From contig OZ219753.1 in the NCBI GenBank assembly GCA_964291315.2, forward strand, positions 1,600,001 through 1,664,000: DNA of 64,000 nt, read 5' to 3'. The position numbers were made by a program, and so were the translations under genes. The number at the start of each line of letters is the position of its first letter. Position 1 is the stretch's first letter. Below the pieces are notes generated by a model. It was not told where the DNA came from. It did not search any database and was given only the letters and a program-made list of their open reading frames with translations. The stretch comes from Candidatus Poribacteria bacterium. GTDB taxonomy: Bacteria; Poribacteria; WGA-4E; WGA-3G. This document shows, piece after piece, positions 7,499-29,427 of this stretch.

Positions 7499-7529
7499 TC
7501 AACTTCAAAAAAAGGAATGAGGTGACGTA

Positions 7530-8093: not shown

Positions 8094-8123
8094 GAACCCG
8101 CCGCTGTTGAAAGTCCTCTAAAA

Positions 8124-9314: not shown

Positions 9315-9362
9315 ACCCGCTTAGAAAGCATGCCATGCTGTTTAGAGCGTCTCTGTTATAGA

Positions 9363-9448
9363 TGCCGGGAAAGGGACTCGAACCCTTACGCGCGAAATGC
9401 ACACTAGAACCTGAATCTAGCCTGTCTACCAAATTCCAGCATCCCGGC
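9363..9448 (-). tRNA. tRNA-Leu (anticodon CAG); CCA not encoded
   Basis: Minus strand GCCGGGATGCTGGAATTTGGTAGACAGGCTAGATTCAGGTTCTAGTGTGCATTTCGCGCGTAAGGGTTCGAGTCCCTTTCCCGGCA: cloverleaf with long variable arm and GGTTCGAGTCC T-arm. Confidence 0.95.
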
Positions 9449-9465
9449 AAATAATTGACAGCTAC

Positions 9466-9494
9466 AGTATACCTTAATTTCCGCTTCTTGTCAA
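9466..9494 (-). promoter_or_regulatory. Sigma70 promoter of tRNA-Leu
   Basis: TTGACA-17 nt-TATACT on the minus strand, just upstream of the tRNA. Confidence 0.75.
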
Positions 9495-9734
9495 ATTAAA
9501 ACGGATGAGGAGACTTCGCCCGGATGTTATTTTCATTTCAGTGTCCCCGGGGATGTAGCATCAACAACTTTACAGACCCGATTAAGTCACGGAGAATAGA
9601 TTAGGAAGAATTCGGATTAAACTTGTAATGTTTCTGACACATCTAATATAATTAACAAACAGACTGACCCCCTCCCTGCAAGTGGGCAACCTGTGGTTAC
9701 ATCACTATACACAACATAAAAGGAGCTTAAACCC

Positions 9735-10481: not shown

Positions 10482-10551
10482 CAATGACGGTTTCGAGATC
10501 GCTGTGGTTTGCTTTGCATCGCGGGTCTCGTTTTGCAAAAGAGACAGACTT

Positions 10552-11043
10552 ATGAGATATTTCGCCTATGGGTCCAATATGGATCACAGTCAAATGCGCC
10601 AACGTTGCCCGGGTGCTGTTTCTGTCGGTAGCTTGAAGCTTGAGCGTTTCCGCCTCGTTTTTAACTATTATGCTGACATTATCCCATCGGAGGCGTGTTC
10701 AGTTTACGGCGGACTCTGGCAAATCACAGAGTCTCACGAAAAATCCCTTGACCACTATGAAGGCTATCCGGACCACTACGGCAAGCATTACCGAGACGAT
10801 GTCATGTTTTACCGGATGGAGCAAGGGTACAGATATCAAGAGCCTCCGGCAAGATGGTATCTGGAAACGGTTATTCAGGGGTATTGTGAGTTTGGGTTAG
10901 TACAAGCAGACTTTGAGGCGAGCCTTGGTGTCAAGGAGCTGGGACTCACGGGGAGAGACCTCGAAGAAATCCTCGGTATGCCCCGCGACGAATTAGAGGA
11001 TCTATTTTCGGCGGCAGCAGCTACTTGTACCGATCTGTTGTGA
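10552..11043 (+). CDS. Gamma-glutamylcyclotransferase family protein
   Basis: YFAYGSNM and LDHYEGYP motifs. Confidence 0.85.
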   Translation: MRYFAYGSNMDHSQMRQRCPGAVSVGSLKLERFRLVFNYYADIIPSEACSVYGGLWQITESHEKSLDHYEGYPDHYGKHYRDDVMFYRMEQGYRYQEPPARWYLETVIQGYCEFGLVQADFEASLGVKELGLTGRDLEEILGMPRDELEDLFSAAAATCTDLL

Positions 11044-12854: not shown

Positions 12855-14234
12855 CTAGCGTAAAACGCCTTGTGCTTTTAGGCGTGAAATCAACTCGGCT
12901 TGTGTGCCCTGTCCTTTTGTAGAGTTGCATGCGGCACAGAGAAGTTGTAAGTTGTCTTCGTGGTCGGTGCCGCCTTGCGATCTTGGCACGATGTGATCAA
13001 TCGTCATGTTCCGAAACGGGAATTGCGTGGAACATCCATTACATAAGCCCTCCTGTTTACCGAACAAGGTATGCTTATGGGTGCGATAATTAGGTACCTT
13101 CTCGCTCCGTGTAGGGATGTCCGTGCGGTGGATAACTCTTCCGAAAAGTCTAACTTCATTCTCTAAACGCGAGCGCACAAGGTCGACTGCTTTGGGTGAT
13201 ATGTCAATCCCTATCCATTGACGTTGGTGTCGTTCTGCTGCGACACAGGTTGTGGCGCACCCACAGAAGGGGTCGAGTACGATATCTCCTTGATTGCTGG
13301 AGGCTTCGATAATGCGTTCTAAAAGGGCGACCGGTTTTTGTGTCGGGTAACCGGTCCGTTCTTCTCCGGCAGGTGGGGAGATGTCATCCCAAATATTACC
13401 GAATGACGTGCCTTTGTAATCCTTCATATATATTCGCCGCTGTAACTTTCCGTCAGGCCGAATAACTATATTTCCTTTCTGGTACTCTTCCTCTAAGCGT
13501 TCCTTGCTTAATCTCCATCCGGATGGGTGGGGATTAACGAATCCGCGCCATTCATAACAGAGGTTGGGTCGCTCCCCCATACCAGGATTCCGCCAAATCG
13601 GCATTGAGTCGTTATAGCGTTCTCCATTTTCGTCAACGTGTTTGAATTTCTTGAGCATTTCGGCTTCTGTGAGTTTTCGCTCTGGCCGCACTGATGTTGA
13701 TGTAGAGGCGGCGTAGTATAAGAGTATATCGGCGTTGTTGCCCCATCGCAAGCTGCGATGCTGGGATCCTTTTTGGGTGGACGTTGTACGTCTCCATGTG
13801 ATTTCGGACCTATAGTTATTTTTTCCGAAAATGCTGTCCATGGTAACTTTCAAATAGTGGCTGGCGGTTGGGTCACAGTGAAGATATATGCTACCGGTCT
13901 TTTTGAGGAGACGCTTCATTTCTAACAAGCGCACTGCCATCATAATGAGGTAAGACTTCATGCCTTTGCCGTGTGTGAGTTCGGCTGTGTGTATTACCTG
14001 ATACAGGGCCGGCTCTCGGTCGGCTATTTCGCCGTGCCATGCGTTGTCTACATCGGAGAGTGTCCAGGTGTCTTTGAAGGCTGTGCCTGCTGCGCTGCTG
14101 CCGATAGGTGCTGCATAGTTGCGATTGGAATTGAATGGCGGGTCAAGATAGATCAGATCGATGGACGCTGTATCTATTCCTCGCAGAACGGGCAAGTTGT
14201 CGTTTGAGAAGAGGGTTCGGTTTTGGGTGTTCAT
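12855..14234 (-). CDS. Beta-class N6/N4 DNA methyltransferase fused to C-terminal HNH endonuclease
   Basis: LIYLDPPF (motif IV) precedes YPTQKP...VLDPFCGCATT (motif I); C-terminal CNGC...IDHIVPRSQGGTD...NLQLLCAACNSTKG. Confidence 0.9.
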   Translation of the reverse strand: MNTQNRTLFSNDNLPVLRGIDTASIDLIYLDPPFNSNRNYAAPIGSSAAGTAFKDTWTLSDVDNAWHGEIADREPALYQVIHTAELTHGKGMKSYLIMMAVRLLEMKRLLKKTGSIYLHCDPTASHYLKVTMDSIFGKNNYRSEITWRRTTSTQKGSQHRSLRWGNNADILLYYAASTSTSVRPERKLTEAEMLKKFKHVDENGERYNDSMPIWRNPGMGERPNLCYEWRGFVNPHPSGWRLSKERLEEEYQKGNIVIRPDGKLQRRIYMKDYKGTSFGNIWDDISPPAGEERTGYPTQKPVALLERIIEASSNQGDIVLDPFCGCATTCVAAERHQRQWIGIDISPKAVDLVRSRLENEVRLFGRVIHRTDIPTRSEKVPNYRTHKHTLFGKQEGLCNGCSTQFPFRNMTIDHIVPRSQGGTDHEDNLQLLCAACNSTKGQGTQAELISRLKAQGVLR

Positions 14235-14408: not shown

Positions 14409-15137
14409 TTAAGGTTTTTCTCCTTCTAATGCTTTCATATCTGGGGGCTTGGTTTCTACGATCCCTTGATCTGGATTGACGGCATTGTGGGCAACCATGG
14501 TTTTGAGGATCTGGTGTGCTAAGTCGATGTATTTCATTGCGGTTTTAGGATTCACTTCATTAAAGATGAGCTGTTTCTGGTAGCCGTAGAGGGTTTCTAA
14601 TTCTCGTGAAAGGTTCATGGAGATATCTAGATTCGGGCTTCGATGATTCGCGTAAAATTCACTTCGAGTTTGGGTAAATAGGGTCCGGTATTTATTCGGG
14701 AATTGAGCGTGATCGATATTAAGGCGGCGGAATCGATTGAACAGATTTTGTCGGAACGTCTTGAGGCGTTCTTGGTGATCGGTGATGGCTTCCTGTTGCA
14801 ATTTGATCTGGAGCTTGGTGAGCTTGGATTCGCGAGTCTCTTGATATTCTTCATGGGCTATTTCATTGAGTTTTTGATCGGCTTTGTCCCCGTATTCTTC
14901 TTCGAACTCTTCTGTGTATTCCTCAATGGCACTGTCGATGTATTCACGTTTTTCTTCTGCTTCTTCTTCGGTTAGCGGTTGGGCCAATAGTTCGTCGAGC
15001 TCGGGCATTTTTTCGAGCTGTGGGATTGGAATTTCATTCTCAAATTTTTCGAGGAATGCCTCGACGATGTCGGTTAATTTCATAAACCGAGCGAAACAGT
15101 TAACGACGAATTCTTTATGTTGTTCTGTGAGTTTCAT
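14409..15137 (-). CDS. DUF2280-like protein with acidic coiled-coil insertion
   Basis: N-terminal LTEQHKEFVVNCFARFMKLTDIVEAFLEKF and KYRTLFTQTRSEF...LAHQILK resemble DUF2280 by eye; AAGGAG RBS. Confidence 0.55.
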   Translation of the reverse strand: MKLTEQHKEFVVNCFARFMKLTDIVEAFLEKFENEIPIPQLEKMPELDELLAQPLTEEEAEEKREYIDSAIEEYTEEFEEEYGDKADQKLNEIAHEEYQETRESKLTKLQIKLQQEAITDHQERLKTFRQNLFNRFRRLNIDHAQFPNKYRTLFTQTRSEFYANHRSPNLDISMNLSRELETLYGYQKQLIFNEVNPKTAMKYIDLAHQILKTMVAHNAVNPDQGIVETKPPDMKALEGEKP

Positions 15138-15544: not shown

Positions 15545-15669
15545 CAAATTTAGGCGGTTGTCCGATGTGACAGTTTTGGACACGGACGCAAGCGGATTGG
15601 AAAATCTGACTCCTGCGCGGTTGCCTCAGTAAGCCGACTCACAAAGTGTGCGCAGAAGAGGAACTGACA

Positions 15670-16857
15670 TTACTGCAGCGCCTTTTTTATTCGGTCTAAT
15701 CCGCGGTTAATCTCTGTCAACGAGGTCGCGAAGGAGAGTCGGAGGTGTTTGTCAGCGCCGAACCCGTCGCCCGGTACAACGCCCACGCCTGCGGAGTTGA
15801 GAAGGTAATCGGTCATATCCATTGCGTTTTCTATTTTGTTTCCGCCGAGCGTTCTGCCGTAGTGTGCGGAAAAATCGGGGAAGATATAGAAAGCGCCTTG
15901 GGGTTTGGCATAACTGATTCCTTCGATGTCATCAAAACGTTGACAGATCACGTTTCGGCGTTCCTCGAACGCTTTTCGCATCTCTTCAACAGCGTCTTGT
16001 GGTTCATTAAGTGCGGCTAGAGCGGCTTTCTGAGCAATGGAGGTGGGGTTTGAGGTGCTGTGGGATTGGATACGCGACATCGCCGAGACGGCTTCTTCGG
16101 GACCCGCCGTATACCCGATCCGCCATCCTGTCATAGAGTAGGCTTTAGAGACACCGTTGACAACAAAGGTGATGGCTTTGGTCTGCTCATTGAAGGAGGC
16201 GGGACTCTGATGTGTCGCTGCATCGTAGAGCAGGGCTTCGTAAATTTCGTCGGAGATAAGGTAGACCTGATGCTTGACCGCAATATCGGCAACGGCTTTG
16301 AGGGTATCCAAATCGTACGTAGTGCCGGTAGGGTTGCTCGGACTGTTAAGGAGGATTGCCTTTGTCTTTGGCGAGAGAGCAGCCTCGACCTGCTGGGGGT
16401 CCATGCAGAAGTTGTCTGCCGGTGTGGTCTCAATGACGCGTGGTATTGCCCCGGCGAGTTTGATTTGCTCAGGGTAGCTGACCCAATAGGGAGCAGCGAA
16501 GATGACCTCGTCGCCTGGGTCACAGATGGCTTGAAAGATGTTATAGATGGTGTGTTTTGCGCCGCATGAGACGATGACTTCGGACGGTTTGTAGCTCAGT
16601 CCGTTGTCCCTTTTAAATTTGTCGGCAATCGCTTGGCGAAGTTCGGGGGTGCCGGGCACAGGCGTGTATTTCGTAAATCCTGCGTTGAGTGCGTCTATTG
16701 CTGCGTTTTTGATATAATCCGGTGTGTCAAAATCGGGTTCGCCTGCGCCGAATTTGACCACATCTACGCCCTCCGCGATCAAGGCGTTAATTTTGGCGGT
16801 GATCGCTAACGTGGAGGATGGTGTTACGCTTTGGCTTCGTTGTGATAAAGAGATCAT
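15670..16857 (-). CDS. aspC: Aspartate aminotransferase (PLP, class I/II)
   Basis: GAGEPDFDTP, NSPSNPTG, SDEIYE, SKAYSMTGWRIGY motifs. Confidence 0.88.
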   Translation of the reverse strand: MISLSQRSQSVTPSSTLAITAKINALIAEGVDVVKFGAGEPDFDTPDYIKNAAIDALNAGFTKYTPVPGTPELRQAIADKFKRDNGLSYKPSEVIVSCGAKHTIYNIFQAICDPGDEVIFAAPYWVSYPEQIKLAGAIPRVIETTPADNFCMDPQQVEAALSPKTKAILLNSPSNPTGTTYDLDTLKAVADIAVKHQVYLISDEIYEALLYDAATHQSPASFNEQTKAITFVVNGVSKAYSMTGWRIGYTAGPEEAVSAMSRIQSHSTSNPTSIAQKAALAALNEPQDAVEEMRKAFEERRNVICQRFDDIEGISYAKPQGAFYIFPDFSAHYGRTLGGNKIENAMDMTDYLLNSAGVGVVPGDGFGADKHLRLSFATSLTEINRGLDRIKKALQ

Positions 16858-16860
16858 TTA

Positions 16861-17420
16861 TTCTCCTTTGAAAATAAGTTTAGGTTTTGGTTTGTAGTAA
16901 AAGTTTCAGGCCGATGGGCCATTTCTTGAGCTGCGTAAGAGGTGTTTCAACCTGTTAATCCCTTTCTATTCAGTCAGTCACTCTCCGTTAAACGGCGGAT
17001 TTGCGATTCTAATCGCTCATACCTAGATTCTAATTCTCTGATTCTATCTTGAAGTTGGCGGTGAGTGCCCGGACGTTGAACAACCCTCGTCTCAAATTCA
17101 GAACGCTCAATCTGTTGAAATCGATTGTGGCGAAGATTTTCATAAAAAATCCAGGTGTCTCGATTTGTGCTATTCGCAAATACCCCGAACCTTGTATCCG
17201 TTGCACAGAGATAGGACTTTAATTGGTCAGGACCATACCCTACAACATTTTCTGGCTTACACTCGGCGATTGCAGCAAAACTCCCTTCTGGGTCAATTAG
17301 CACGATGTCAGCCCTGCGGCGGCTAACTCCCATCTGAATTTCGCATTCCCTTGCTGTGGAAAATTCTTGCCTGAGCTCAGAAAAATAAGACTTAACTTCC
17401 CTTACTACTTGAGCTTCACC
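16861..17420 (-). repeat. Duplicated cassette tail, copy A (nuclease + coiled coil + 3' region)
   Basis: Homologous to 18101-18470; e.g. 16865-16908 matches 18105-18148 at 36 of 44 nt. Confidence 0.8.
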
Positions 17421-18083
17421 GTCCTGAAAACCATCGGGCAGAACACGTATATTTCTAGTCCTAATTTGATACCGGGATGTGGGTGGAAAGATGTTAAAGT
17501 GCCCCTCTATACTAACATTAGCCCCTTCCCTTGAAGGAAAGTCACCTGCAATATCGGGAGAAAGTGTGCATTCAATCATTTCTGTGGCACCACTCTCATT
17601 AGCGTCAACATTTATGAGAGCCATACGGATATATCCTTGGTTAGTGCGGGTCCACTCGAAGATTTCCCCTTGAACCGTGATTGAATGGGGTTTTATACTG
17701 TTTTTTAAGGCGGTGGTTAGAGAACTAACGGAAACGGTTTGATCTGGCTGGCCAGCTCCAGGCGTTTCTATACCGGTAACAGCGAACTTATATGCTCCCC
17801 TGTCTCGAAGGAGGATAACCCTACCTGTGATAAACACTTCATTGCCTACTGACGGCACATTTTGAAAAAGGGAAGGATACGCCCTATGAATAAGACATTC
17901 AATCCTGCTTTTGGGGGACTCCATGTCTTGGAGTGTGAAAGCGTAAGGTAGATATTCTGGGTTCGCTGAGATTTTTCCACGTACCCAGACGTTTTGAAGT
18001 GCAGACTGCTCACTTATGACATCCGAGAACATATCCGTTACTTCACGAACGCTGTAGGTATCTATATTAATGTCGTTTGGCAT
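16974..18083 (-). CDS. Tandem exonuclease VII large-subunit-type OB folds fused to HsdR_N-like PD-(D/E)XK nuclease and coiled coil
   Basis: Two copies of (Y/V)SV..(V/L)T...V(R/Q)G(K/E)I...IEC...G..V.I.G....Y; then RRADIVL...IAECK...QLKSY...FGVFAN; GAGGAGG RBS before ATG 18083. Confidence 0.75.
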   Translation of the reverse strand: MPNDINIDTYSVREVTDMFSDVISEQSALQNVWVRGKISANPEYLPYAFTLQDMESPKSRIECLIHRAYPSLFQNVPSVGNEVFITGRVILLRDRGAYKFAVTGIETPGAGQPDQTVSVSSLTTALKNSIKPHSITVQGEIFEWTRTNQGYIRMALINVDANESGATEMIECTLSPDIAGDFPSREGANVSIEGHFNIFPPTSRYQIRTRNIRVLPDGFQDGEAQVVREVKSYFSELRQEFSTARECEIQMGVSRRRADIVLIDPEGSFAAIAECKPENVVGYGPDQLKSYLCATDTRFGVFANSTNRDTWIFYENLRHNRFQQIERSEFETRVVQRPGTHRQLQDRIRELESRYERLESQIRRLTESD

Positions 18084-18100
18084 GTGCACCTCCTCCTATA

Positions 18101-18470
18101 TTCGCCTTTGAAAATAAATTTTGTCTTCGGTTTGTAGTAAGGTTTTCAATCCGACGGATCGTTTTTTAGGCTGTTAAGCAGCCTCTCAAACTGTTGAATC
18201 CCTTCGTTCCATGCCGTCTCTTTCCGTTTAAGACGGCAAATTTCAGACTTTAAGTGCTCACATTCGGCCTCTAACGATTTGATTTTATCTTGAAATACAT
18301 GTGCATTCGGCGATCGCGGCAAAATTCCCTTCGGAATCAATTAGTACGACATCGGCCCTGCGGTGAGCAACTCCCATCTGAATTTGGTATTCCTTTACTG
18401 TGGAAAATCCTTCTTGTTTGAGCTCAGAAAAGTAAGACTCAACGACCTCTACTACTTGAGGTTCGCCTGC
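18101..18470 (-). repeat. Duplicated cassette tail, copy B (internally deleted)
   Basis: Homologous to 16861-17420 but missing about 65 codons after AIAEC. Confidence 0.8.
18146..18302 (-). pseudogene. Out-of-frame coiled-coil tail of the giant protein
   Basis: HVFQDKIKSLEAECEHLKSEICRL aligns with HRQLQDRIRELESRYERLESQIRRL of the neighbouring paralogue. Confidence 0.7.
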
Positions 18471-21400
18471 AGCACCCACTGCCGTCTCCACACCCGCTAC
18501 CTGCTCAGCGAAACGCGTCGCGATCCTACCTCTTATATCGTCGAACATCACATCCTGTAAAGCAGGCTCTATCGCCCGATAAAAAGCAGGAGCATTTTCA
18601 CGATTCGCTAATTTCTGAAGAATAACCTTCTGGAGAGCATCATATGCGGAAGACGCGAGGACAAAGTTTGTATTGTAATCAATCCCTTGAGGCACTGTAC
18701 CGGGTTCCGCACGGAAGAGGTCTATATTCTCAATCATATCATAATCTGCGGGGTCTAATTCTTCCGTCATCGCCTCTATCTGCTCAGCGGCATCCGTATC
18801 TCGCTGTTCTAATAACGGCATTTCAACCTGCCATTGTCCGTTGCCGACCTGTCGGACAGACACTCGCAGGTCATCCGTAATCTGATATATTGTTTCCCCA
18901 CTACTGAGTTCTTTAACACGGATATGTCCCCGGTGGACAGGGTTCAACCATGCGGAAAGCGTTGCGTAGTTCGCCTGTGCGAAGCTTTCAACGATACGCG
19001 GGAGCCGCTCTATCCGTGTCCCCTCTCCGTCCGTGCTATTTTCTACCTCTAAACTAAAGATAACCCTGTTTTGTCTACTTATACGCATCCGTGGCTCTAC
19101 GACCAACAAAATCTCTTCCCGAGGCCCCACAGCCTCCTGCGTCTCTGTCGCGGGAGAGCCCTCTATCGCCTGAGAGACCGCATTAATACGAATAAAGGGA
19201 TTGTTTGTAACCCGATAGGACGCACGGACTGCCCGGTGTTCTGTACCATCTACATCTACTGTGACCCCTTCTGCTTGGGTCTGTTCAGCAATAGGAGACG
19301 CGCCAGCAATCTCTTCCCTACGCGCACGAAGTTCCTGAGCGAGAGCTGTATCTGAAATTGTAACAGAATGTGTAAGCGAAGCGGTATCAAATGTCTCAGG
19401 ATCGAGCGTAAGACTATCTGCTACATGCTCCCTGCCCCCTTCACGCGTCTTGAGCACTGTGTTCAAAACATTCTGCGATTTTCGTCTCTGTCCACGAATT
19501 ACAGCAGGACGATAAGGAGCGTCCTTGAAATACTCCCCTTGCAACCGCCAGATAGCGTCCTTGACATCCCGTATCGCGATAGGATAGCTGCGCGTAATCC
19601 GTCGCATCTGTGATTCTAGAGAATCCACGACCTCTCGCAACGACTTTCGTAACACATCATTAGAGACATGCGTATCAATCGCATTTAAGAGAGCCTCCCG
19701 ACCTACAGGGCTCCCCTCCCCTACTTTAGGGAAGACCAAACGACGGATGCCCCAGCGATTGTAGACCTTCTGTACTTCCTCCGAACCCGATCTTGCGATT
19801 TCTACCTCTAAAGATTTTAGTAACCGTCTATAATTAGAAACCGAAGTTTCTAGCCCATTCTGCAGTGCCCGTTGCTGATCCACAAGTTCTTGAAGATTCT
19901 CAAGCACAGTCGCCCGTGTCTCTGCATCCAACTCATCTTTCAATTCATTGCGGTACCCCTCCATCCTGCGATCCGAGAGCGGAGGCTCTACATCAAACGC
20001 ATTTTCTACAAAATATTCAACCGTTACATTCTTTTCGAAGAAGCGGTCTTTATTAGAGTGATCAGCGAAGCGGTGGAATGTCTCTATAGCAGAAAGTGCA
20101 GCTGAATCAAAAGCGTTCGCAAGTATCTCTGCCTCGCCACTCTCACCCATATATCCTTCATCTTCATAAAAGGCTAATACGAGAGGGTCCATGTAAGAGC
20201 GAGCCGTACTCCGCTTCTTAAATCCTGAAGCGTTAATATCTCGGATCGTTAAACTCGCACCTGAGGCAGCGTGTGTCACCGAAGCGATAAAGGTATCAGG
20301 AGCAGATTGAGCAATCGCAATACGGAGCCCCGTCCCTGATTCATAAACACGCACACCATTAACAAAGCCTGTGGATTGCATAGCATCATTGCGATTCGGG
20401 ACACGCAATGCGACACCATCGGGCGTAAGCCCTGTAGATGACTGAGCGAGGGTGGATTGCCCCGATTGCACCATCTGCTCGTTGAAAGCCTTCACACCTT
20501 GAAGGAAACGCGTGTGACGCGCCTCTAGTTCCTGTGCGATAGCACTCTCAGACTCAGCGGTCTCTATGAAATTCGAACGAGAGATCTCTATATCGACACG
20601 GAAATGATGCTGGATACCCTCGGGGACAGGGGAGTAGTAAGCCCCCGCGAGGAACCTTATTGGTTCCATATCCCGATAAAGTTGTTCTAGCGTAGAGAGG
20701 ATATAAGACTCAGAAACCCCGTCAACTAAAATCCAAGGCGTTGTTCTACGGAGATATGCCCGTTGTGCTTGTATCGCAGCCTTGCGTTCATTATCTATCT
20801 CTGTCGCTTCCCGCGAAGATTCCCCTGGTGTCTCTGACTGTATGTCTACAGGGAGTTCACTTGTCTGCCGTCTGTGCTCAAAGCCACGTAGTGGTTCCGC
20901 TTCAAAAGTTGTCGGGTCCGGTACCCAAGCATCCGCCTCTCTTCTGACATAAATTCCGCGTTCGGTATCGAAAAAGGCGACACGCCTAAACTTCTCAGCG
21001 TTCACTGGGCTCCGTGCGGGAGATGGGAAATTCGCCTGAGACGGGTCATCCGCACGGTCTGTTAGCAACAGATGCATCTCTATGGGTTCGCCTTCTATCG
21101 CATATCTCTGAATATGGTCTACAGGAGGCGTATCCTTACCCGCATAATACTGCGTATCTTCAATATCTCTAGGTAGCCGGCGGACGGGGCCTGTATAGCG
21201 AGCATATGTTCGTGTCGGTCTCCGATCCAAAGCAGCGCGGACTTCTAGAGGTTCTAAATCATCATCAGTATCCGTCTCCGCGGCATCACGCTCCTCAAAT
21301 TCCTTCACAAAGGCAAGTTGTCGCTCTAACGCAATATCCGTTATCACCACCCGCGTCTCTCTGCGTCGCTCCGGCTCCCAGTTGCCATTTCTATAAACTT

Positions 21401-24400
21401 CTAAAACCGCAGCACGTTCTATTGCGGGGAAGCGAACACGCCTTTCATCACTAATTTCCCATACAACATCATCATTGACTTCCCTGCGTATATTGTAATT
21501 CCCAAAACTACCCGCTTCAATCATACGTCGCATGTGCCCGCGTACCGTATTTACGAACTTCCTGCCCACATATTCCCATAAAGACCGAGCATCTGCGTAA
21601 TCTATCTCTTCAAGCACGACACCATTATAGAAAACCTTTGCGACACCACTCCCCTCAAGGAACTCAACCACATACCCCTGGTATTCCTGATGCACATACC
21701 TACGGACAACAGGATTGTCATAATGCTGTTCCACCCAGTTTTTATCTGTTGGTGTCCATGTATTTTGAGCCTCTAATCGTCTCCTGAGTAGGCTCGGGAC
21801 TGCCCATCTGAGTTGAGCTACCGTGCGTTGAGCATCAAGAGAGTCCATCACTTCCCTATTGACCACATCAACTAAAGCCTCATATACATCGAGCCGAGTG
21901 TAGAGCGGAGTTTCTGAAGCGAACACAGCCGTCTCTATCGCTTGCGTCAACTCTGCACCAAACACGAACGCAATATCCCTTGACCAATCCTTCCAATCTT
22001 CTATAAGAATGTTATTAGGGTCAGTATCTGCTTCCCGCCAGCCAGTAATAGTAGGCGGTTTCCCTTCTTGAACCTCAACACGTTGTCCGAAGGGACGTAC
22101 TTTCGGGAGATTCCATCCCTTTTCAGCCGCAACTTCACGTTGAGACCAAAGGATGTATGAGATCGCTTCATGCGGAGAACGTGGTTGTCCGTCTGGTGTC
22201 TCTATAGCGACAGCCACTGCGGGGACAGGTGTCCCATTTGCGTCGCGGAAGACAGGAACCGATTCATCCCCACGGAAGGCATCTATCCTATATCTGAAGC
22301 CCGATTCTGTGGGTACCACCTGAACAGTAAAAGTATAGTCAGGCGACTCAACAACACCATCTGCCCCTAAATCAAAAGCGACAGTATCCCCTAGTTCAAA
22401 TCGCCAGGCACCCTGACCCCCCATATCTATCGCGGCAAGCTGGAGCGGGATATTCCCTGATAAAGAGAAACCATCTCGCATCACCATTGCGATAGGAGCA
22501 ATCGCCCTTCGCAACGCATCTGTTGTATTCAGCGGGCCTGTTTGCCAGTTCGTGACAAACACTTTATCACTTATCGTCCCATCTTTCCGGTTCTCAATTG
22601 TCACCTCACCCTTCTCACCCTTCTTGAATCGGATAGTTAAGTCAGAGCCGAGCATCGCGACCTGTACTTCTGTATCAGAGTCCTGGATCACCTCAAACTG
22701 TGTCCCCTTTGTCCTATCTATGTAAAAACGTGTAGACTCCCGTTTTGTGCCATCCGCATCCGTCTCCTCCATAGAAGCAACCGCCATCCGCAACTGCGTT
22801 GAGGGACGACGAAATACCTGCTTTTTATCAGGAATAACGACATATTCGTGCATCGCAGACGCAGGTACCAGTTTCCCCGTATTCGTCAACACTATATCTG
22901 AACGGGGACGCTCACCCGCTAACGTCTCTAGATTCTTTTGAAACGCAGAGAGCGGTAAATTGGTAAGAACGACACCTTTCAACTTAAATGCGTCTAGACC
23001 TCGGAGTTCTACAAAAGCCGATTGTAATGTATTGAGGAGCTGCTTTAAGGCGACACCCTCAGGCTCCCAAAGCGACATCATAGAGAAATTTTCATTTTTA
23101 GACGTAAACGTTTCAAGGTCTGCTGCGAGCTGCATCAACCGGTTCTGCTTAACCGTGTCTTCCGTATTCCCCGCGAGACGCTTGAGCATATGAGCCGTAT
23201 CCCCCGCCATATCTGAAAGCCCCGCACCCCGTCGCTCACCCGTTGCTCGCCATTTCCCATCAGGCCCCTTCTTCTTCACCTCTGCTGTAGCGGGTATAGA
23301 CCCATCATTCCAGAGGGCATCAAACCCATTTTCAGGAGCATTTATGACCATTTCATATGTATCAAACCATTGCGGAGCATAAATCTCATCTATCTGCGAC
23401 TCCCGTGGCACACCTGTTGCAGCGACCCGTCCTGCGAGAGACCGTATCTGAGCCTTAGGCGAACGCGGGTCTTCTACTACACCCTCACCGTCATCCTCCG
23501 TATCCTCATCTGCGTCAGGCGGGCGTTCCCCCGCTTCTATGATCTCTTCATCCGTCGCTGTATCCGGTTCCTCTGCTTCCGCTTGATCTTGTGCGAAGTC
23601 AGGATTATCTAAATCTATATCATCCATAGAGCCGACACCCTGGTTCGTAATCTCAGACAACAGCACAGTCTGTATCGTTTCTGGCGAATACTCCACCGTC
23701 TGCGGTACCGGGACAGATGTAATATGAGGCGTGAGACGCTGCATCTCTCTACGGATTGACTTGAGATAATTTTCCACCTGCGTCAAGATGTTTGGAGGGT
23801 CAGGGAGCCGCAACACGAACTGACGCACCGCTGCGATCTCCGCTTCTGTCGGACGAGCATCCGTACGGGACGTTTGATACCGAGTAATAAAAGACTTAAC
23901 TAAATCCCATTGCTGTTGCTTTTCTTTTATAGTGTAGCCTTTAAAGACAAGATCCGCGACAGAGAGGTCTTCAAGCTCTACAGGCGTTCCGAACGAGACA
24001 CGTTCTGTATCTCCTCTAACATCTGTTCTCCACAGATGCGGAGTTACCCACAGATATTCATAAAGTGCTTCATTCTCAGAGTCCCAGCCTTGCGAGAAAT
24101 CTGACCATGGCATTTGGAGCCGAATATTCAACGGGAAAGACAACGGCAAACGCAGGCCTTTATTCTGTGGCGTGACGACAGAGAGATATTTACCACTTAC
24201 AGAGAGACGTACCTCTATATCCCTGAAATTCCCTAAATAATAATGATATACCTGCTTTTCTGTCAGAACAGGGATTGAGGCGTAAGGAACATTCTCTTCC
24301 TGCCAGCTGAACGTCTGGTCTTCATCACGCGTATGGTGTTGCTCCCCTACCTTCGCGTACTCACCCCGTGTTACAATATCCTGTGGCGGTGCGAGACCAC

Positions 24401-27400
24401 CTTGTTCTGTATCTCGGGATGCGAGATTTACGACACGATACTTTAGATTACCACGACGCTTCACCGGTATCAGAGGATCGTTCGGGTGTGATTCTACGGA
24501 ATCAACAGAGCTATCCCCATAGATACCTGGATTTACAACACCGGGAGCGAGCGAACGGAAGAGATGCTCTACAGCGACAGGGAAGTCCTCACTACCAAAA
24601 ACGAGCCCCGCATATGCTTCCCGAGTTCCTAATTCGGAAGGGAACGCTGTCCGCATCCCAAGTTCTGCGGCACCTTCTGTCATTTCTGTCTCTAGTTGCA
24701 ACAGGTCTGCTTCTTGCGTCCGAGGCGTAGTGAGTTTCCACTCCACACTATCCTCAGGCCCCCTTCGCAAAATAAGTTCAAAGCCGGGATAATGCGCGTG
24801 TCTATAGATAACCTGTTGTACCGTCCCTTCCGTATCTGCTTTTAAATCTACAAGTGCGAGAGCACCCGCTGCCTTAGGAGCATACATAGACATCGCTTTT
24901 GTCACACGAACCTCACTCCGTCCGGCAATAGGGTCAGGCGGTGGAGCGGGAACTTCTCTCGCAATCCCTACAGGGTCAAACACCTCTGTGAGACCACCGG
25001 GCTGGATGTCTACCACACGCATCCCTAGCACATCGTGCATAATCTCGCCAAGAATAGAGCGGTGCGAGGCACGAGATTCACGTTCTAACGCCCCGAACGC
25101 AATCGCACTCTCTCCCAAAGCCTCCCCGGCGATATGAAGACGGATCGTGTCTTTAAGAAACATCCCGAGGTCTTTCTGTGTTTTCCGTAGATAGTTATGA
25201 TACGCAGCAGTAAAAGCAGGGTCAAGCCCACCCCTTCGGAGACGGTCATTTGTGCGCGTAATCCCTGAAAGTCTATCTATAATCAACTGATAGGCGTGGT
25301 CATTTTGAGAAGGCGTGAATTCGTGAGCTGCGACATACTTTATATCTGTATCCCTAAAAGATTCCCGCAGACGTTCTGCGTGAGACCAAGAATCTTCAAG
25401 AGCGTTTGTCTGTGGATTGCGTTGCCTGTCCCACATCGTCATCCGCACATCCACGAACACTTTAACACCAGAGGCTTTCAAATCCCTGTAGAATGTTTCA
25501 AAGTTTTCATAGTTACGGAGACCTATCAATCCCCCTGTAACAGTCCGTTCCGCTTCATCTAACGGAGTGACATATTCAAACTCAGAAGATGTTGTAGGTG
25601 CGGGGTGTCGTGCTGCGAGCAGGCGGTTGAGTATACGAAGTTCCGCAGAAGCACGGAGGGCCGCACTTTGTGTCGGTATCGCTCCCTCTTTTGTCAACTG
25701 GCTCTGAATCTCTCCGATACGATCCTGTAGTTGTCCTTCTGTCCAGTCCGCTGTTTTTGTTTCAAATTCCTGGTACGCTTTTTCTGCGAAAGCAGAAGTG
25801 GGATGTGTAAGTGTCGCGACCTCTTTGAGTGCTTTTAGGAGATTCTTTCCATCCCAAAGATATGTTGTTTCAATCTTCCCCGTCCGTTTATTTTGATACT
25901 CCCCTTTTTTGACCAGCGGGCTAGACTTTGTATTCTTGAGAACAATCACGCCAGGGAGTGTCGCGAGGTACTCGCTCCCTTCAAGTGGAGAACCGAAAAG
26001 AGCAGGGTCAAGGATAACAACAGGGCGGCCCGCTTGCAAGGATTTTAGAGCCGTATCTACTGCCTGGTCATTCTCTTTATGGCTCGCGTGTGTAATGAAA
26101 GTCACGTGGCTAAGAGACGCGATAAGAGCATTCTTCTGAAAGTTGTTCCTCTGATATGGCGATCTCCCTGTTGCCGTTGTCACCTCGTTGGCATCATAGC
26201 CTGTCGGATGCATAGAGATAGCACCCGCATTTACTCCATCAATTTCAGGCACATTCGGCTGATACTGAGCCGTTCGGCTAAAAGGCGTAGCACGCCTCTC
26301 TATCCCGCCGGGCATTGCGACCAGCACATTCGCCCGCTTCTGTTTTGTAACAGCTTTCACCACTTCACGCCCTGTGCCAAAGGTGCCATCTGTGACAGCA
26401 ATCTCCTCATTCAGTGCGGTAGCAAGTGCAGCCGCTGCATTAGCACCTTCTCCCTGTGCTTTATTATAGGCATCTATTCGCTCTTCAACCGCTTGATCCC
26501 ATTCTGAAGCATCCGTGATCCATCCGAGGCGAGTCGCAACATCTATCTTCTTCTGCCGCGTCTGCTCTTCTGTCTCTCCCATAGAAGAAAACGAGCTGTT
26601 ATTACGCTGAGAGCCTGCTATTCCGAAGGTCAGATTACCTTGAGCCGCTTTATTAAGAATCATCTCCGCAGTATTGTGGAGATAGAGCGACCTTATATCT
26701 ATCCCGAGAGCGTCAGCCGCGGACTGCATCCGTGGCGGTAAATCCGCAAAAGGCATTTGTCCCGCAGGTTCAGCGTCTGCGGGTGTCGGCACAGGTATTT
26801 TTCCATCTTTGAGCTGCTGCCGTATTTGCATCAAATGTCGGCCAAGTAGGTTCTCTCCCTTGACACCTTGCGGAGTTATATTCACACCCCAAACGGGTTT
26901 CGCGTTACTGATCGTCTCCCGGTCGGTGCTAATCGGTTCTACAAAAAGCAAACGACGGTCACCTGTTGCGAGGAGCCAGTCTGCGAGTGTCCTCGCCTCA
27001 CGAGCATCAAACTTGTAAAGCTGGGGAGACGCATATTTCGCAAGCAACGCTTCACGCATCAACGAACTCCTGCGTTGCACCCAGGCTGCGGTCTGTTCAG
27101 GCGTAAGTTCAGACTCATATTTATTCGCAATCTTCCACGCCTCTTCTGCGGTGTTTGCTCTACGGATACCTTCTGAGACAGGTATCTGTTGCCGTTTACC
27201 ATCACGAGCCCGTACCCACCACATCTTTAAGCCGCTGTTCGCAAACTTCATAGAGAGCATATAATGCTCAACAGAGGTATAACGTTGTCCGCCTATCTTT
27301 GGATAATCCGCAAAAAAAGTAGATAACGCGCGGAACGGGCCACGGAGCGATTCATAATTAAAATAGAGCGTATTGTTAACACTCCCCGCAGCTTCTTCCT

Positions 27401-28367
27401 CCGCGTCCACATCTAATCCCGCTTCATATTCCTGAAACTGCTCTAACCCCTCTTGGAACAGAGCCACTGTTTGCTGTAATTCTCGGAGCGTTTCTGCCTC
27501 TGTCTCTGTCCGCACATCCTTCGCTTCAAGTTCCGCAATATCCTCTTTTAAGTCTGCGATAGCTTTTTCAACATTCGAAACACTTAACTCCCCATCCTGC
27601 AATGCTTCAAACACTTCATTCTCTTGTCCGAAGGGAGAACCGAGGGTTTCCCAGCCATCGTCATCCGTATCCGCTTGTGCCTGTGCTTCACGTCGTTGCC
27701 GTATCCTGTCAAGGATTTTATTCGCTGCAGCATCACTTGTCCTTATCTTCGCAGTCTCTGGTATCTCTCGTTCTTCTTCTTCTGCTTCAGGCTCTCCGGG
27801 TTCTTTTATCGGCAGTTCTTCTTCCTGTTGCTGGGTTTCCTGCTCCTGTTCTTCTTCCTGCTCAGGCTCAGGCTCCGGTTCTGGTTCAGTTCTACGAGCA
27901 TATCGGGTCTGTCCCCCCTCTCTGCTACTATCTATTTCGTCAAAGAGGTTATCAACCGCCGTGATCAACGCTCGGAGTTCCAGCCATTGCGACAATCCCT
28001 CTGAGAAATAAGCCAGCTTTTCATGAGCCTTTCGAAGGTCTTTCACCTCTGCTTCGGTTAGCCCCGATTTCGCTTCGAGTTCCACAATCGTAGCTTCAAT
28101 CTGCGCTTTTCCTTCTTCAACCACAGCAACCGGCAGACCATCGCGGAGCGCACCAAACACTATATTTCCATCAGCAGCCTCTTCTCCAAACGATGACGTG
28201 AGTACGGTTGCTTCCTCTTCCACCTGATAGAGCGGGTGCGGTGGGCTTTCTTCTATTGCTGTATCGCCAACGAGTTCTGTTGTCTCATTGGTTTCTGATA
28301 CTCTTGAATAGCAGACATCTCGTCCGTCTCTCTCGCTGCTAATAAATCCTTTTTTCCGAGTTGACAC
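18285..28367 (-). CDS. Giant (3360 aa) polyvalent-type protein: repeated helical domain, NADAR, DprA/SLOG-like, DUF488-like, long unassigned region, truncated HsdR_N-like nuclease
   Basis: 10-kb uninterrupted ORF with GAGGAGG RBS before GTG. NADAR: LSTFF...SVEHY..SMKF...ALLAKY...LLATGDRRL...WG...GENLLGRHLMQIR. SLOG-like: GIAGS...KNALIASLS...AGRPVV. DUF488-like: VKVFVDVR...SHRSIL. C-terminus RRADVVL...IAEC. Confidence 0.8.
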   Translation of the reverse strand: MSTRKKGFISSERDGRDVCYSRVSETNETTELVGDTAIEESPPHPLYQVEEEATVLTSSFGEEAADGNIVFGALRDGLPVAVVEEGKAQIEATIVELEAKSGLTEAEVKDLRKAHEKLAYFSEGLSQWLELRALITAVDNLFDEIDSSREGGQTRYARRTEPEPEPEPEQEEEQEQETQQQEEELPIKEPGEPEAEEEEREIPETAKIRTSDAAANKILDRIRQRREAQAQADTDDDGWETLGSPFGQENEVFEALQDGELSVSNVEKAIADLKEDIAELEAKDVRTETEAETLRELQQTVALFQEGLEQFQEYEAGLDVDAEEEAAGSVNNTLYFNYESLRGPFRALSTFFADYPKIGGQRYTSVEHYMLSMKFANSGLKMWWVRARDGKRQQIPVSEGIRRANTAEEAWKIANKYESELTPEQTAAWVQRRSSLMREALLAKYASPQLYKFDAREARTLADWLLATGDRRLLFVEPISTDRETISNAKPVWGVNITPQGVKGENLLGRHLMQIRQQLKDGKIPVPTPADAEPAGQMPFADLPPRMQSAADALGIDIRSLYLHNTAEMILNKAAQGNLTFGIAGSQRNNSSFSSMGETEEQTRQKKIDVATRLGWITDASEWDQAVEERIDAYNKAQGEGANAAAALATALNEEIAVTDGTFGTGREVVKAVTKQKRANVLVAMPGGIERRATPFSRTAQYQPNVPEIDGVNAGAISMHPTGYDANEVTTATGRSPYQRNNFQKNALIASLSHVTFITHASHKENDQAVDTALKSLQAGRPVVILDPALFGSPLEGSEYLATLPGVIVLKNTKSSPLVKKGEYQNKRTGKIETTYLWDGKNLLKALKEVATLTHPTSAFAEKAYQEFETKTADWTEGQLQDRIGEIQSQLTKEGAIPTQSAALRASAELRILNRLLAARHPAPTTSSEFEYVTPLDEAERTVTGGLIGLRNYENFETFYRDLKASGVKVFVDVRMTMWDRQRNPQTNALEDSWSHAERLRESFRDTDIKYVAAHEFTPSQNDHAYQLIIDRLSGITRTNDRLRRGGLDPAFTAAYHNYLRKTQKDLGMFLKDTIRLHIAGEALGESAIAFGALERESRASHRSILGEIMHDVLGMRVVDIQPGGLTEVFDPVGIAREVPAPPPDPIAGRSEVRVTKAMSMYAPKAAGALALVDLKADTEGTVQQVIYRHAHYPGFELILRRGPEDSVEWKLTTPRTQEADLLQLETEMTEGAAELGMRTAFPSELGTREAYAGLVFGSEDFPVAVEHLFRSLAPGVVNPGIYGDSSVDSVESHPNDPLIPVKRRGNLKYRVVNLASRDTEQGGLAPPQDIVTRGEYAKVGEQHHTRDEDQTFSWQEENVPYASIPVLTEKQVYHYYLGNFRDIEVRLSVSGKYLSVVTPQNKGLRLPLSFPLNIRLQMPWSDFSQGWDSENEALYEYLWVTPHLWRTDVRGDTERVSFGTPVELEDLSVADLVFKGYTIKEKQQQWDLVKSFITRYQTSRTDARPTEAEIAAVRQFVLRLPDPPNILTQVENYLKSIRREMQRLTPHITSVPVPQTVEYSPETIQTVLLSEITNQGVGSMDDIDLDNPDFAQDQAEAEEPDTATDEEIIEAGERPPDADEDTEDDGEGVVEDPRSPKAQIRSLAGRVAATGVPRESQIDEIYAPQWFDTYEMVINAPENGFDALWNDGSIPATAEVKKKGPDGKWRATGERRGAGLSDMAGDTAHMLKRLAGNTEDTVKQNRLMQLAADLETFTSKNENFSMMSLWEPEGVALKQLLNTLQSAFVELRGLDAFKLKGVVLTNLPLSAFQKNLETLAGERPRSDIVLTNTGKLVPASAMHEYVVIPDKKQVFRRPSTQLRMAVASMEETDADGTKRESTRFYIDRTKGTQFEVIQDSDTEVQVAMLGSDLTIRFKKGEKGEVTIENRKDGTISDKVFVTNWQTGPLNTTDALRRAIAPIAMVMRDGFSLSGNIPLQLAAIDMGGQGAWRFELGDTVAFDLGADGVVESPDYTFTVQVVPTESGFRYRIDAFRGDESVPVFRDANGTPVPAVAVAIETPDGQPRSPHEAISYILWSQREVAAEKGWNLPKVRPFGQRVEVQEGKPPTITGWREADTDPNNILIEDWKDWSRDIAFVFGAELTQAIETAVFASETPLYTRLDVYEALVDVVNREVMDSLDAQRTVAQLRWAVPSLLRRRLEAQNTWTPTDKNWVEQHYDNPVVRRYVHQEYQGYVVEFLEGSGVAKVFYNGVVLEEIDYADARSLWEYVGRKFVNTVRGHMRRMIEAGSFGNYNIRREVNDDVVWEISDERRVRFPAIERAAVLEVYRNGNWEPERRRETRVVITDIALERQLAFVKEFEERDAAETDTDDDLEPLEVRAALDRRPTRTYARYTGPVRRLPRDIEDTQYYAGKDTPPVDHIQRYAIEGEPIEMHLLLTDRADDPSQANFPSPARSPVNAEKFRRVAFFDTERGIYVRREADAWVPDPTTFEAEPLRGFEHRRQTSELPVDIQSETPGESSREATEIDNERKAAIQAQRAYLRRTTPWILVDGVSESYILSTLEQLYRDMEPIRFLAGAYYSPVPEGIQHHFRVDIEISRSNFIETAESESAIAQELEARHTRFLQGVKAFNEQMVQSGQSTLAQSSTGLTPDGVALRVPNRNDAMQSTGFVNGVRVYESGTGLRIAIAQSAPDTFIASVTHAASGASLTIRDINASGFKKRSTARSYMDPLVLAFYEDEGYMGESGEAEILANAFDSAALSAIETFHRFADHSNKDRFFEKNVTVEYFVENAFDVEPPLSDRRMEGYRNELKDELDAETRATVLENLQELVDQQRALQNGLETSVSNYRRLLKSLEVEIARSGSEEVQKVYNRWGIRRLVFPKVGEGSPVGREALLNAIDTHVSNDVLRKSLREVVDSLESQMRRITRSYPIAIRDVKDAIWRLQGEYFKDAPYRPAVIRGQRRKSQNVLNTVLKTREGGREHVADSLTLDPETFDTASLTHSVTISDTALAQELRARREEIAGASPIAEQTQAEGVTVDVDGTEHRAVRASYRVTNNPFIRINAVSQAIEGSPATETQEAVGPREEILLVVEPRMRISRQNRVIFSLEVENSTDGEGTRIERLPRIVESFAQANYATLSAWLNPVHRGHIRVKELSSGETIYQITDDLRVSVRQVGNGQWQVEMPLLEQRDTDAAEQIEAMTEELDPADYDMIENIDLFRAEPGTVPQGIDYNTNFVLASSAYDALQKVILQKLANRENAPAFYRAIEPALQDVMFDDIRGRIATRFAEQVAGVETAVGAAGEPQVVEVVESYFSELKQEGFSTVKEYQIQMGVAHRRADVVLIDSEGNFAAIAECTCISR

Positions 28368-28516
28368 GTGTACCTCCTCACTCTATATTATTTTATACAA
28401 AAAACGTTCAAAAGAGAGAAAATAACCTCAGAAGAGATATTACTCCTCTTGGTGAAAATAGGAGCCCATTGAAGACATTTTCAGTGGCGACTTTCAAGTA
28501 GCTACGGTTCTCCGAA

Positions 28517-29383
28517 TCACAACGTTTTTTCGAATTCCTTCAGCAGGTTTCGCTGCTTGCGAGACAGCGATTTCGGTATTTCTACGACCAGCCTGACCTT
28601 TAAATCTCCTTTTCGTCCGGAGGCATCCACGGCGCCGCGCCCGCGTAAGCGGAGCTGCTGTCCGGGTTGCGCACCCGCGGGGATCTTTAGCTCGACATTG
28701 TCGGTGAGCGTTTTGATCCGAACAGAACCCCCTAACGCTGCGTCTGTCATAGAGATTTTGGCATCTGTTAGCAGGTCCAAACCGTCGCGTGTCAGGGTGG
28801 GATGAGGCTGCACAGAGACTGTTACCAATAGGTCCCCTGAGGTGCCTATTCCGCGAGATTCGCCTTGTCCTCGGATGCGGAGGGTTTTTCCATCTTCGAT
28901 AGTGGGCGGAATTGTAAGCGTGATCCGTTTTCCTCGGACGTTTACGTCTTTCTTACTGCCTAATACTGCGTCTGAGAAAGGGATAGTGATATTCATACGA
29001 ATATCTCGTCCACGGGCTGGCGTAGTAGTTCGGCGCTGTCCGAATGCGTCGCCGAATGCGTCGCTAAATCCGCCGAGCCCGCCGAACCCGCGTCCAAAAA
29101 TGTCATCTAAATTGAGGTGGGCGAAAATATCATCCGTGGTCCTATAGCCTTCGAAACCCATGTTGTTGACTCCGGCGTGCCCCTGTGTATCATAGACGCG
29201 TCGCTTTTCTGGATCAGAGAGCACAGAATAGGCATTAGAGGCCTCTTTGAACTTCTCTTCTGCTGCTTTATCGCCAGGGTTTTTGTCTGGATGATACCGG
29301 ACTGCAAGTTTGCGATACGCTTTCTTGATTTCGTCTGGCGTGGCTCCTCGGGCTATACCGAGGATTTCATAGTAATCTCTCAT
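28517..29383 (-). CDS. DnaJ-class chaperone without zinc finger (CbpA-like)
   Basis: J domain with HPD, G/F-rich region, DnaJ C-terminal domain, no CxxCxGxG repeats. Confidence 0.92.
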
Positions 29384-29427
29384 AGTATTTTCTGTGATAA
29401 AGGTTGTGCGGTGTATATCCGATCGAT

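Follow-up and report, generated by a model that had tools for sequence, protein, structure and literature searches.

A probable one-off chimera of a duplicated nuclease gene and half of a foreign giant gene in a variable locus of a Poribacteria genome

In a 64,000-nucleotide (nt) stretch of a Candidatus Poribacteria genome (GenBank assembly GCA_964291315.2, contig OZ219753.1, positions 1,600,001 to 1,664,000; hereafter the window, to which positions refer unless a locus is named), two neighbouring minus-strand open reading frames (ORFs) sit between the genes for a DnaJ/CbpA-like protein and a class I/II aminotransferase (Table 1). The downstream ORF (16974-18089) has 371 amino acids (aa) if counted from a GTG, the true start likely being the ATG at 18083, and encodes a protein (P0001) with two OB folds, a putative PD-(D/E)xK nuclease module and a coiled coil, to which we refer as the OB-nuclease. 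The upstream ORF is the longest in the genome, and it shares with the small gene a leader, part of the nuclease module and a noncoding tail. A first-pass annotation, made from the sequence alone, had read the pair as a locus that swaps or captures foreign domains in front of a constant nuclease effector. Here, we report that the giant ORF is probably a one-off chimera, in which one copy of a duplicated nuclease gene was overwritten by half of a foreign giant gene within a variable hotspot, and not the product of a swapping system.

The small protein matches the Pfam family tRNA_anti_2 twice, which gives the two OB folds, and HSDR_N_2 (PF13588) with 28.7 bits against a cut-off of 25 (E 1.5e-6). 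The nuclease motifs noted in the first pass, D...E-x-K and QxxxY, are conserved in this protein, where D261, E276-C277-K278, Q289 and Y293 are invariant across 42 aligned family members; the assignment as a putative nuclease follows from these sequence signatures. An AlphaFold2 (AF2) model built on a 42-row alignment (predicted local distance difference test, pLDDT, 84.6) contains two OB barrels, an alpha-beta-beta-beta-alpha-beta unit and a long C-terminal helix. The order of elements in that unit (H224-238, E244-253, E256-265, E271-277, H286-297, E301-305) fits a PD-(D/E)xK core, and the Foldseek list, dominated by OB folds, matched no nuclease structure. Its top matches are tandem-OB proteins that bind single-stranded DNA (ssDNA), namely Teb1, the Thermus and Deinococcus SSB proteins, RPA70 and the ExoVII OB domain, while a PDB sequence search brought up only weak matches, to coiled coils and to the ExoVII OB, none of them better than E 0.038. 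The coiled coil suggests oligomerisation. With modest confidence, we read the protein as a candidate oligomeric, ssDNA-directed nuclease whose activity the Macro partner found in relatives (see below) may tie to ADP-ribose chemistry.

The near-identical leaders reported for the two starts are confirmed. The pattern GAGGAGGTRCACRTG matches exactly twice in the window, once per start, with 0.02 matches expected from shuffled sequence, and at least two matches were reached by none of 100 shuffles. An alignment that spans the giant's GTG, the 73 nt before it and the five bases after it (including GTGTCAAC) shows 52-71% identity, over about 87 nt, to the sequence ahead of OB-nuclease genes from 10 relatives. 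The small gene retains just the last ~20 nt of its native leader region, immediately preceded by a copy of the tail. On these alignments, the leader appears to be the native promoter/leader of the OB-OB/PD-(D/E)xK/coiled-coil gene. The tail similarity also stands (36 of 44 nt between 16865-16908 and 18105-18148) and stretches to 80 nt at 75%; its proposed role as the constant end of a cassette does not. For the comparison we used 44 loci, consisting of this genome and 43 fetched relatives (L068, cut by a contig end, was dropped). In 20 of the 44, empty sites included, TTTCAAAGGAG lies at most 40 nt from the aminotransferase ATG. Because the same sequence precedes this ATG even where both core genes adjoin, the tail is best read as the 5' leader that belongs to the aminotransferase. 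Among 36 intervals tested, that of this genome alone has an internal copy of it.

The rest of the shared sequence points to a tandem duplication. The shared module is 82% identical in DNA (17260-17420 against 18304-18467) and 71% identical in protein over 56 residues, and a gapped alignment identifies the entire 3' end of the giant, comprising the N-terminal half of the nuclease, the coil and the tail, as a diverged copy of the small gene's 3' end. In the flank of the small gene, tail lies upstream and leader downstream of AATA (~18097-18100), so that the end of one unit is joined to the start of the next, as expected of a head-to-tail duplication. Over the 53 codons common to both nuclease copies, the ratio of non-synonymous to synonymous substitution rates (dN/dS) is 0.31 and dS is 0.47; these values suggest that both copies remained functional long after duplication, evolving for some time under purifying selection. 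A promoter and terminator scan of 16700-18500 yielded nothing beyond chance on the minus strand. With the end-to-start joint present and module, coil and tail homologous between the copies, the best explanation of the shared leader, module and tail is that they are scars of a duplication and not the boundaries of a cassette system.

The second copy of the nuclease is broken. Whereas its N-terminal half is homologous to the small gene's, as the first pass had seen, the copy terminates at A-E-C-T-C-I-S-R-stop. A segment of ~200 nt (~17070-17259 in small-gene coordinates) is absent; the deletion takes the ExK lysine (K278), QxxxY and all later invariant residues, keeps the D and the E, and shifts the frame into the stop at 18285. 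The coiled coil survives solely as out-of-frame DNA downstream of that stop. Against PF13588 the C-terminal remnant reaches 13.1 bits (E 0.11), and it lacks the complete catalytic motif. Because the copy stops at E-C-T, before K278, Q289 and Y293, it is predicted to be catalytically dead and could not be a working nuclease, and the notion of a constant effector behind both cargoes falls with it. A 64-codon ORF that overlaps the giant's end (18146-18340, minus strand) is what has stayed open of the former coiled-coil frame in the broken paralog and is unlikely to be a gene.

Between leader and remnant, the two genes are indeed unrelated, with two OB folds in one and ~3300 aa in the other. The giant's residues 1200-2442 are present in this genome and absent from the other 175 of the 176 genomes of the phylum; residues 1-361 found one marginal low-complexity match (E 5e-4) in the 64 other genomes of the genus, and residues 362-3360 found no match in 40 relatives save through the last ~57 residues, the nuclease remnant. 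When the 1109 long ORFs of the genome are ranked by codon fit, the giant is at the 5.5th percentile and the small gene at the 0.4th. Word-indexed searches of 5.8 billion proteins, of near and shorter lengths, retrieved nothing but the giant itself, a sensitivity limit of those searches, since a full HMMER scan of residues 2100-3299 against 1.84 billion representatives found 13 relatives. These are all metagenome proteins, with lengths that include 7439, 6772, 5448, 3513 and 3015 aa. In BLASTP, residues 218-3293 of the giant are colinear with residues 880-4040 of one super-giant (P0124, 7439 aa) and 115-3327 of another (P0125, 6772 aa), each of which runs on for ~3400 residues past the giant's end of homology. 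Nothing in this genome corresponds to the missing second halves, and a module like HSDR_N_2 is absent from the super-giants. Since the colinear relatives continue and the genome holds no counterpart, the cargo appears to be a truncated half, the first ~45%, of a super-giant gene that is foreign to this genome by its distribution. Homology to the super-giants stops at 18483-18489, at most ~20 nt from where homology to the small gene begins, and the 5' end of the foreign segment lies at 28360/28361. Of the original proposal, the capture of foreign coding DNA, in frame, between a native leader and a nuclease module is therefore borne out.

The super-giant family (P0124, P0125, P0137, P0135; 5,448-7,712 aa) is very rare. 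Its head carries NADAR, DprA-like and DUF488 domains in that order, significant in P0127 and P0130. In the giant, NADAR (PF08719) is the sole significant Pfam domain of this segment (E 4.2e-12, 47 bits against a cut-off of 35.1). The DprA-like match (PF02481; E 0.0086, 15.7 bits) is under its cut-off in the giant and passes in P0127 and P0130, and the DUF488 match (PF04343; E 4.3e-4) has 21.3 bits against 22.2, a value that P0130 passes with 22.3 bits. About 2300 aa of the giant have no domain or fold recognisable by Pfam, ESM Atlas or AF2 with Foldseek. ESM Atlas gave no usable match for residues 1130-2290; an AF2 model of residues 1640-2290 (9-row alignment, pLDDT 70.4) had no PDB match in Foldseek at E <= 0.001, with TM scores <= 0.15; and BLAST of the giant against itself printed no internal repeats. 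A PHROGs search returned one exonuclease OB match and one family of unknown function over the NADAR region. RRM_1 is the only Pfam domain found in the C-terminal half of P0125, where motifs resembling JAB/RadC and methylases, picked out by eye, received no support from Pfam.

Table 1. Positions of the two ORFs, their predicted parts and the flanking genes in the window.
Feature	Positions	Strand	Remark and basis
Class I/II aminotransferase gene	15670..16857	-	conserved downstream flank of the hotspot; Pfam match
Apparent native 5' leader of the aminotransferase (the "tail" of the first pass)	16858..16933	-	TTTCAAAGGAG near the ATG in relatives
Intact OB-OB / putative PD-(D/E)xK (HSDR_N_2) / coiled-coil gene, 369 aa from ATG	16974..18083	-	Pfam, AF2
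Probable tandem-duplication junction, tail end joined to leader start at AATA	18097..18100	-	read from sequence
Out-of-frame coiled-coil remnant and duplicated aminotransferase leader ("tail")	18094..18301	-	alignment to the 3' end of the small gene
Breakpoint of the ~200-nt deletion	18301..18302	-	gapped alignment; frameshift into the stop at 18285
Nuclease N-half remnant of the upstream paralog	18302..18467	-	82% nt identity to 17260-17420
Giant ORF, probably chimeric, 3360 aa, GTG start	18285..28367	-	native start, then foreign fragment, then truncated nuclease remnant
Predicted foreign 9.9-kb segment, 5' ~45% of a super-giant gene family	18483..28359	-	colinearity with P0124 and P0125
DUF488-like stretch, giant residues ~956-1023	25299..25502	-	PF04343, just under threshold in the giant
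DprA/SLOG-like stretch, giant residues ~735-800	25968..26165	-	PF02481, sub-threshold in the giant
NADAR domain, giant residues 357-520	26808..27299	-	Pfam PF08719
Predicted native promoter/leader of the OB-nuclease gene family, now ahead of the giant ORF	28368..28440	-	alignment with 10 relatives
DnaJ/CbpA-like gene	28517..29383	-	conserved upstream flank of the hotspot; Pfam DnaJ and DnaJ_C

The gap that holds both genes is a hotspot that varies between strains and species of the genus. Outside this genome, 61 of 64 genomes of the genus have the aminotransferase at 88-92% identity, and in all 44 loci the neighbouring core gene is DnaJ. The distance between the two ranges from 89 to 11,659 nt, the largest being that of this genome; six gaps are empty (89-94 nt), and 100 of the 108 gap ORFs have the orientation of the flanking genes. 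The occupants include DUF433 (19 of 44 loci, with a PIN partner in 9), a ~311-aa family of unknown kind (15 loci), the OB-nuclease (14), Macro (9) and a stand-alone 188-aa HSDR_N_2 protein (5). No other giant occurs in the 44 intervals, and this one is the sole non-OB cargo among the 14 OB-nuclease loci. The catalogue of intervals that the first-pass annotation had set as its own check therefore turned up no array of unrelated cargoes, an outcome mostly against a swapping system. The absence of a visible recombinase was correctly noted; we found no recombinase, integrase, reverse transcriptase or repeated cassette boundary in the interval or the window. Two further observations concern the content of the intervals. 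Members of the ~311-343-aa family (e.g. L032, 17446-18432, plus strand), absent from this genome's interval, resemble at their C-terminus, weakly and below threshold, the Rpn recombination-promoting nuclease/putative transposase family (E 7e-5) and a PADLOC 'putative invertase' (E 1e-4), and the sole mobile-element gene seen in the 44 intervals encodes a DDE_3 (IS630-like) transposase (L063 of genome G078, 2739-3935, minus strand).

Within this hotspot the OB-nuclease appears to evolve far faster than its neighbours. Median identity of relatives to P0001 is 32% in the OB part and 52.5% in the nuclease, the N-terminal part outpacing the nuclease, and the core neighbours are far more conserved (DnaJ 77-88%, and the aminotransferase as above). 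At the family level the nuclease module is joined to OB-OB, TPR, HhH or Macro domains, or to none; among the 120 protein-search matches listed, a hand count gives ~51 of the OB family, 36 with TPR, 4 with HhH and 1 with Macro, and the TPR and HhH fusions sit at other loci of these genomes. For example, TPR + HSDR_N_2 genes lie beside a HigB-type toxin gene at L026 (G014, 6562-10647) and L027 (G021, 7835-10578), and the latter also adjoins kinase-TPR and PP2C genes. Rearranged forms of the OB-nuclease were seen as well. A 533-aa protein (L024 of G017, 6379-7980, minus strand) has the nuclease module first and OB-OB second, which resembles a fusion across two tandem paralogs and suggests that rearrangement among copies recurs at the locus; L028 holds a split gene, another rearranged form.

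A Macro gene lies immediately upstream of the OB-nuclease in eight loci. OB, HSDR_N_2 and Macro are combined in a single 564-aa protein in L034 (G056, 1249-2943, minus strand) and in P0047 (539 aa), and the former fusion would tie the nuclease and Macro functionally. The interval studied here has no Macro gene. The genome's sole Macro-domain gene lies 9 kb away in the window (7530-8093, plus strand) and is 54% identical to the Macro genes inside the hotspot of relatives. In five relatives, Macro is found in the interval only (G016, G017), in the outside position only (G024) or in both (G056, G061). With PADLOC, neither P0001 nor the giant nor the families of the intervals could be assigned meaningfully to a defence system, the hits being coiled-coil noise and a weak Type I methyltransferase stretch. 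The OB-nuclease family, often paired with or fused to Macro, is an uncharacterised candidate for a defence-like role.

We evaluated the assembly and the surrounding populations with Logan contigs from four public runs (X1-X4) aligned to 15600-29400. These favour the assembly, as X1 contigs cover 17936-22035 and 22063-28428 with 0 differences and bridge both fusion junctions. Contig depth over the giant is 424-448, about half that of the flanks (802-950), although by the tool's own warning such depths are not cell shares. X2-X4 cover the flanks and give no cover over 18366-28046, uncovered parts that we interpret only jointly with the joints that bridge them. One joint, 18059->28361 with 14 other letters between (X1 and X2), is a giant-less form in which the native start leads straight into the OB domain. 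Joints from tail to OB start in X1 (side of 33 letters) and X3 (80 letters between) indicate tandem OB-nuclease copies without the giant. In X3 and X4, 18301->17070 joints place small-gene-like sequence (17070 onwards) directly upstream of 18301, and the upstream copy there retains the stretch that is lost from this genome. Such variants in sister populations, giant-less or tandem, look like the intermediates that a duplication followed by capture predicts, which makes an assembly chimera unlikely, and the capture of the giant and the deletion in the nuclease are probably recent.

We propose the following history. A unit running from the OB-nuclease leader through the aminotransferase leader would have been duplicated head to tail, with the junction at the AATA microhomology, and both copies would have stayed under purifying selection for some time. 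A recent illegitimate recombination may then have swapped the OB-OB coding part of the upstream copy for a 9.9-kb foreign fragment of the NADAR/DprA-SLOG-like/DUF488 type, joined in frame behind codon 2-3 at one end and right ahead of the nuclease module at the other. A deletion of ~200 nt stripped that copy of the catalytic half of its nuclease, leaving a 3360-aa chimeric ORF under a native promoter, with no working nuclease, beside an intact OB-nuclease gene.

Several points weigh against this account. The donor and its genomic context were not found: tblastn of giant residues 1-3000 against 50,697 phage and 72,556 plasmid records gave no match, and pattern scans for giant-related loci in viral (IMG/VR), genome and metagenome contig collections gave no confirmed one. 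That the 10-kb ORF is open throughout, with its frame kept at both junctions, could be a sign of selection for the fusion and not of an accident, though for a very recent event an intact frame would be little guide. With the two copies 18-25% apart in DNA and the giant variable between strains, the account needs an old duplication and then a recent capture. With a side of 33 letters, close to the length at which the tool advises caution, the tail-to-OB-start joint in X1 hints that another strain has tandem copies whose tails are near-identical, and duplication or gene conversion may thus be recurrent. All contig evidence comes from one study, X1 may be the genome's source data and hence not fully independent, and no RNA run is listed among the public runs that contain parts of the stretch.

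The same structural history is shared by an alternative that differs just on whether the product matters, namely that the chimera is a working, selected gene. The host would express the NADAR/DprA-SLOG-like/DUF488 half from a strong native promoter, the dead nuclease stub being irrelevant, and the processing of ADP-ribose derivatives might be a task that the product takes over from the Macro partner or shares with it. All 3360 codons are open, the frame is kept at both junctions, and the ORF stands behind a native promoter and ribosome-binding site. The significance of NADAR and the conservation of its pairing with the DprA-like domain in the super-giant family also fit, as does the want of a Macro gene in an interval that in relatives has one beside or fused to the OB-nuclease; in phages, combinations of SLOG, Macro and NADAR are outlined as predicted ADP-ribose-processing sets (PMC9503650). 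We nevertheless consider a working gene unlikely. The giant is confined to this genome or strain, so that nothing speaks for its retention; a Macro gene is already encoded 9 kb away; the chimera lacks over half of the ancestral protein; and the DprA-like and DUF488 matches in the giant itself are under the Pfam cut-offs.

The locus as first described, dedicated to repeatedly swapping foreign domains between a constant leader and a constant nuclease for sensor or decoy diversification, would gain from the variety of partners that the module has at the family level, from the faster divergence of its N-terminal neighbour, from strain-level structural variants at a highly variable locus, and from the rearranged forms in L024 and L028. 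It is nonetheless highly improbable: a single locus of the 14 has a non-OB cargo, the effector behind that cargo is truncated, the cargo is itself a fragment of a larger gene, the tail is a neighbour's leader with an internal copy in one interval, the TPR and other architectures sit at different loci, and neither recombinase, reverse transcriptase nor repeat boundaries accompany it. Plant immune receptors carry integrated decoys. By a parallel with these, the OB-nuclease could be a defence gene whose fast-evolving N-terminal sensor region is a preferred landing site for invader DNA, with fragments of mobile-element genes, in this case half of a polyvalent-like giant, expressed from its promoter as decoys or baits and the tandem duplicate as a spare copy that makes capture tolerable, a speculation that we would entertain only at long odds. 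Misassembly, in which the giant does not truly lie between leader and nuclease remnant, deserves thought for a genome that appears to be metagenome-derived (4 contigs, 95% complete, 3.5% contamination) and whose sample contains differently structured strains, but the independently built X1 contigs bridge both junctions, the duplicated parts are too diverged to be collapsible repeats, and the frame is open across both joints; we give it next to no weight. The one-off chimera thus remains our preferred explanation.

Two more regions of the window deserve mention. Between the aminotransferase and a sulfatase gene, the window encodes a DNA methylase fused to an HNH nuclease (12855-14234, minus strand) and a 242-aa ORF with weak DUF7607 and DUF2280 matches (14409-15137, minus strand). 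The sulfatase directly follows the aminotransferase in G016, G017 and G001, and a similar methylase-HNH gene occupies this place in G008; the gap looks like a second small variable spot. Further away, a 720-aa ORF with an MmeI-type DNA methyltransferase domain (37536-39698, plus strand) is followed by several ORFs without Pfam matches (39865-42428), and this patch (37536-42428) may be another one for restriction or defence.

An apparent cargo-swapping system is in this way exchanged for a traceable history of tandem duplication, capture of a foreign fragment and deletion within a nuclease, with likely intermediates visible in sister populations. If this is right, the locus offers a clean natural example of how a chimeric giant gene can originate within a hotspot of conflict genes. 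It also provides three leads: an uncharacterised OB-OB/PD-(D/E)xK/coiled-coil nuclease family that is repeatedly paired with or fused to Macro and evolves far faster than its neighbours; a group of very rare 5,400-7,700-aa proteins whose folds are unknown beyond a NADAR/DprA-like/DUF488 head; and a compact hotspot between two core genes that can be mined for conflict genes in genomes of the sponge-symbiont type.

In comparison with known systems, the interval is set apart from integron-like or gene-cassette arrays by its lack of a recombinase and of repeated boundaries. It is closer to the defence hotspots of core genomes, as outlined for Pseudomonas aeruginosa (PMC10250203) and for the defence island repertoire of Escherichia coli (PMC10121019): a fixed site between core genes holds differing, conflict-type accessory genes, and some sites are empty. 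It differs in that PADLOC recognised no known system here, the content being toxin-antitoxin-like pairs and uncharacterised nuclease and Macro genes, and in that the interval is small, at most 11.7 kb, with nearly all ORFs oriented like the flanks.

The concept of polyvalent proteins of phages and conjugative elements is reportedly due to Iyer et al. The giant and its relatives are likewise very large and apparently multidomain, with NADAR beside a DprA-like domain of the SLOG superfamily, in keeping with the combinations of NADAR, Macro and SLOG and the giant polyvalent effectors of phages outlined in PMC9503650. The giant is, however, chromosomal and truncated, with no mobile-element genes in the window, and the phage, plasmid and IMG/VR searches returned no relative of it. 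We regard the family as apparently resembling polyvalent proteins, short of a demonstrated membership.

The small protein, for its part, shares with XseA, the large subunit of ExoVII, an N-terminal OB fold of the same Pfam family (tRNA_anti_2) and the order OB, nuclease, coiled coil, and ExoVII is among its structural matches. It differs in reaching 65.6 bits on TIGR00237 against a cut-off of 180, over residues 13-114 only, and in its predicted catalytic domain, a PD-(D/E)xK module and not that of ExoVII; the genome encodes a separate XseA-like ORF of ~419 aa.

A further comparison is with the Shedu (SduA) immune nucleases, outlined as a PD-(D/E)xK core with diverse N-terminal sensor domains (bioRxiv 10.1101/2023.08.10.552793). 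In the OB-nuclease family, too, a conserved PD-(D/E)xK nuclease is joined to variable partners, the N-terminal part evolves faster than the nuclease, and a coiled coil suggests oligomerisation. The differences are that the nuclease here is HSDR_N_2 (PF13588) and not DUF4263, with no DUF4263 Pfam or PADLOC Shedu model matching P0001 or its relatives at E <= 0.01, that a Macro partner is frequent, and that a defence role is here a prediction from sequence. Although not a member of Shedu, the OB-nuclease family may by analogy follow a similar logic, in which a conserved nuclease core is combined with variable sensing domains.

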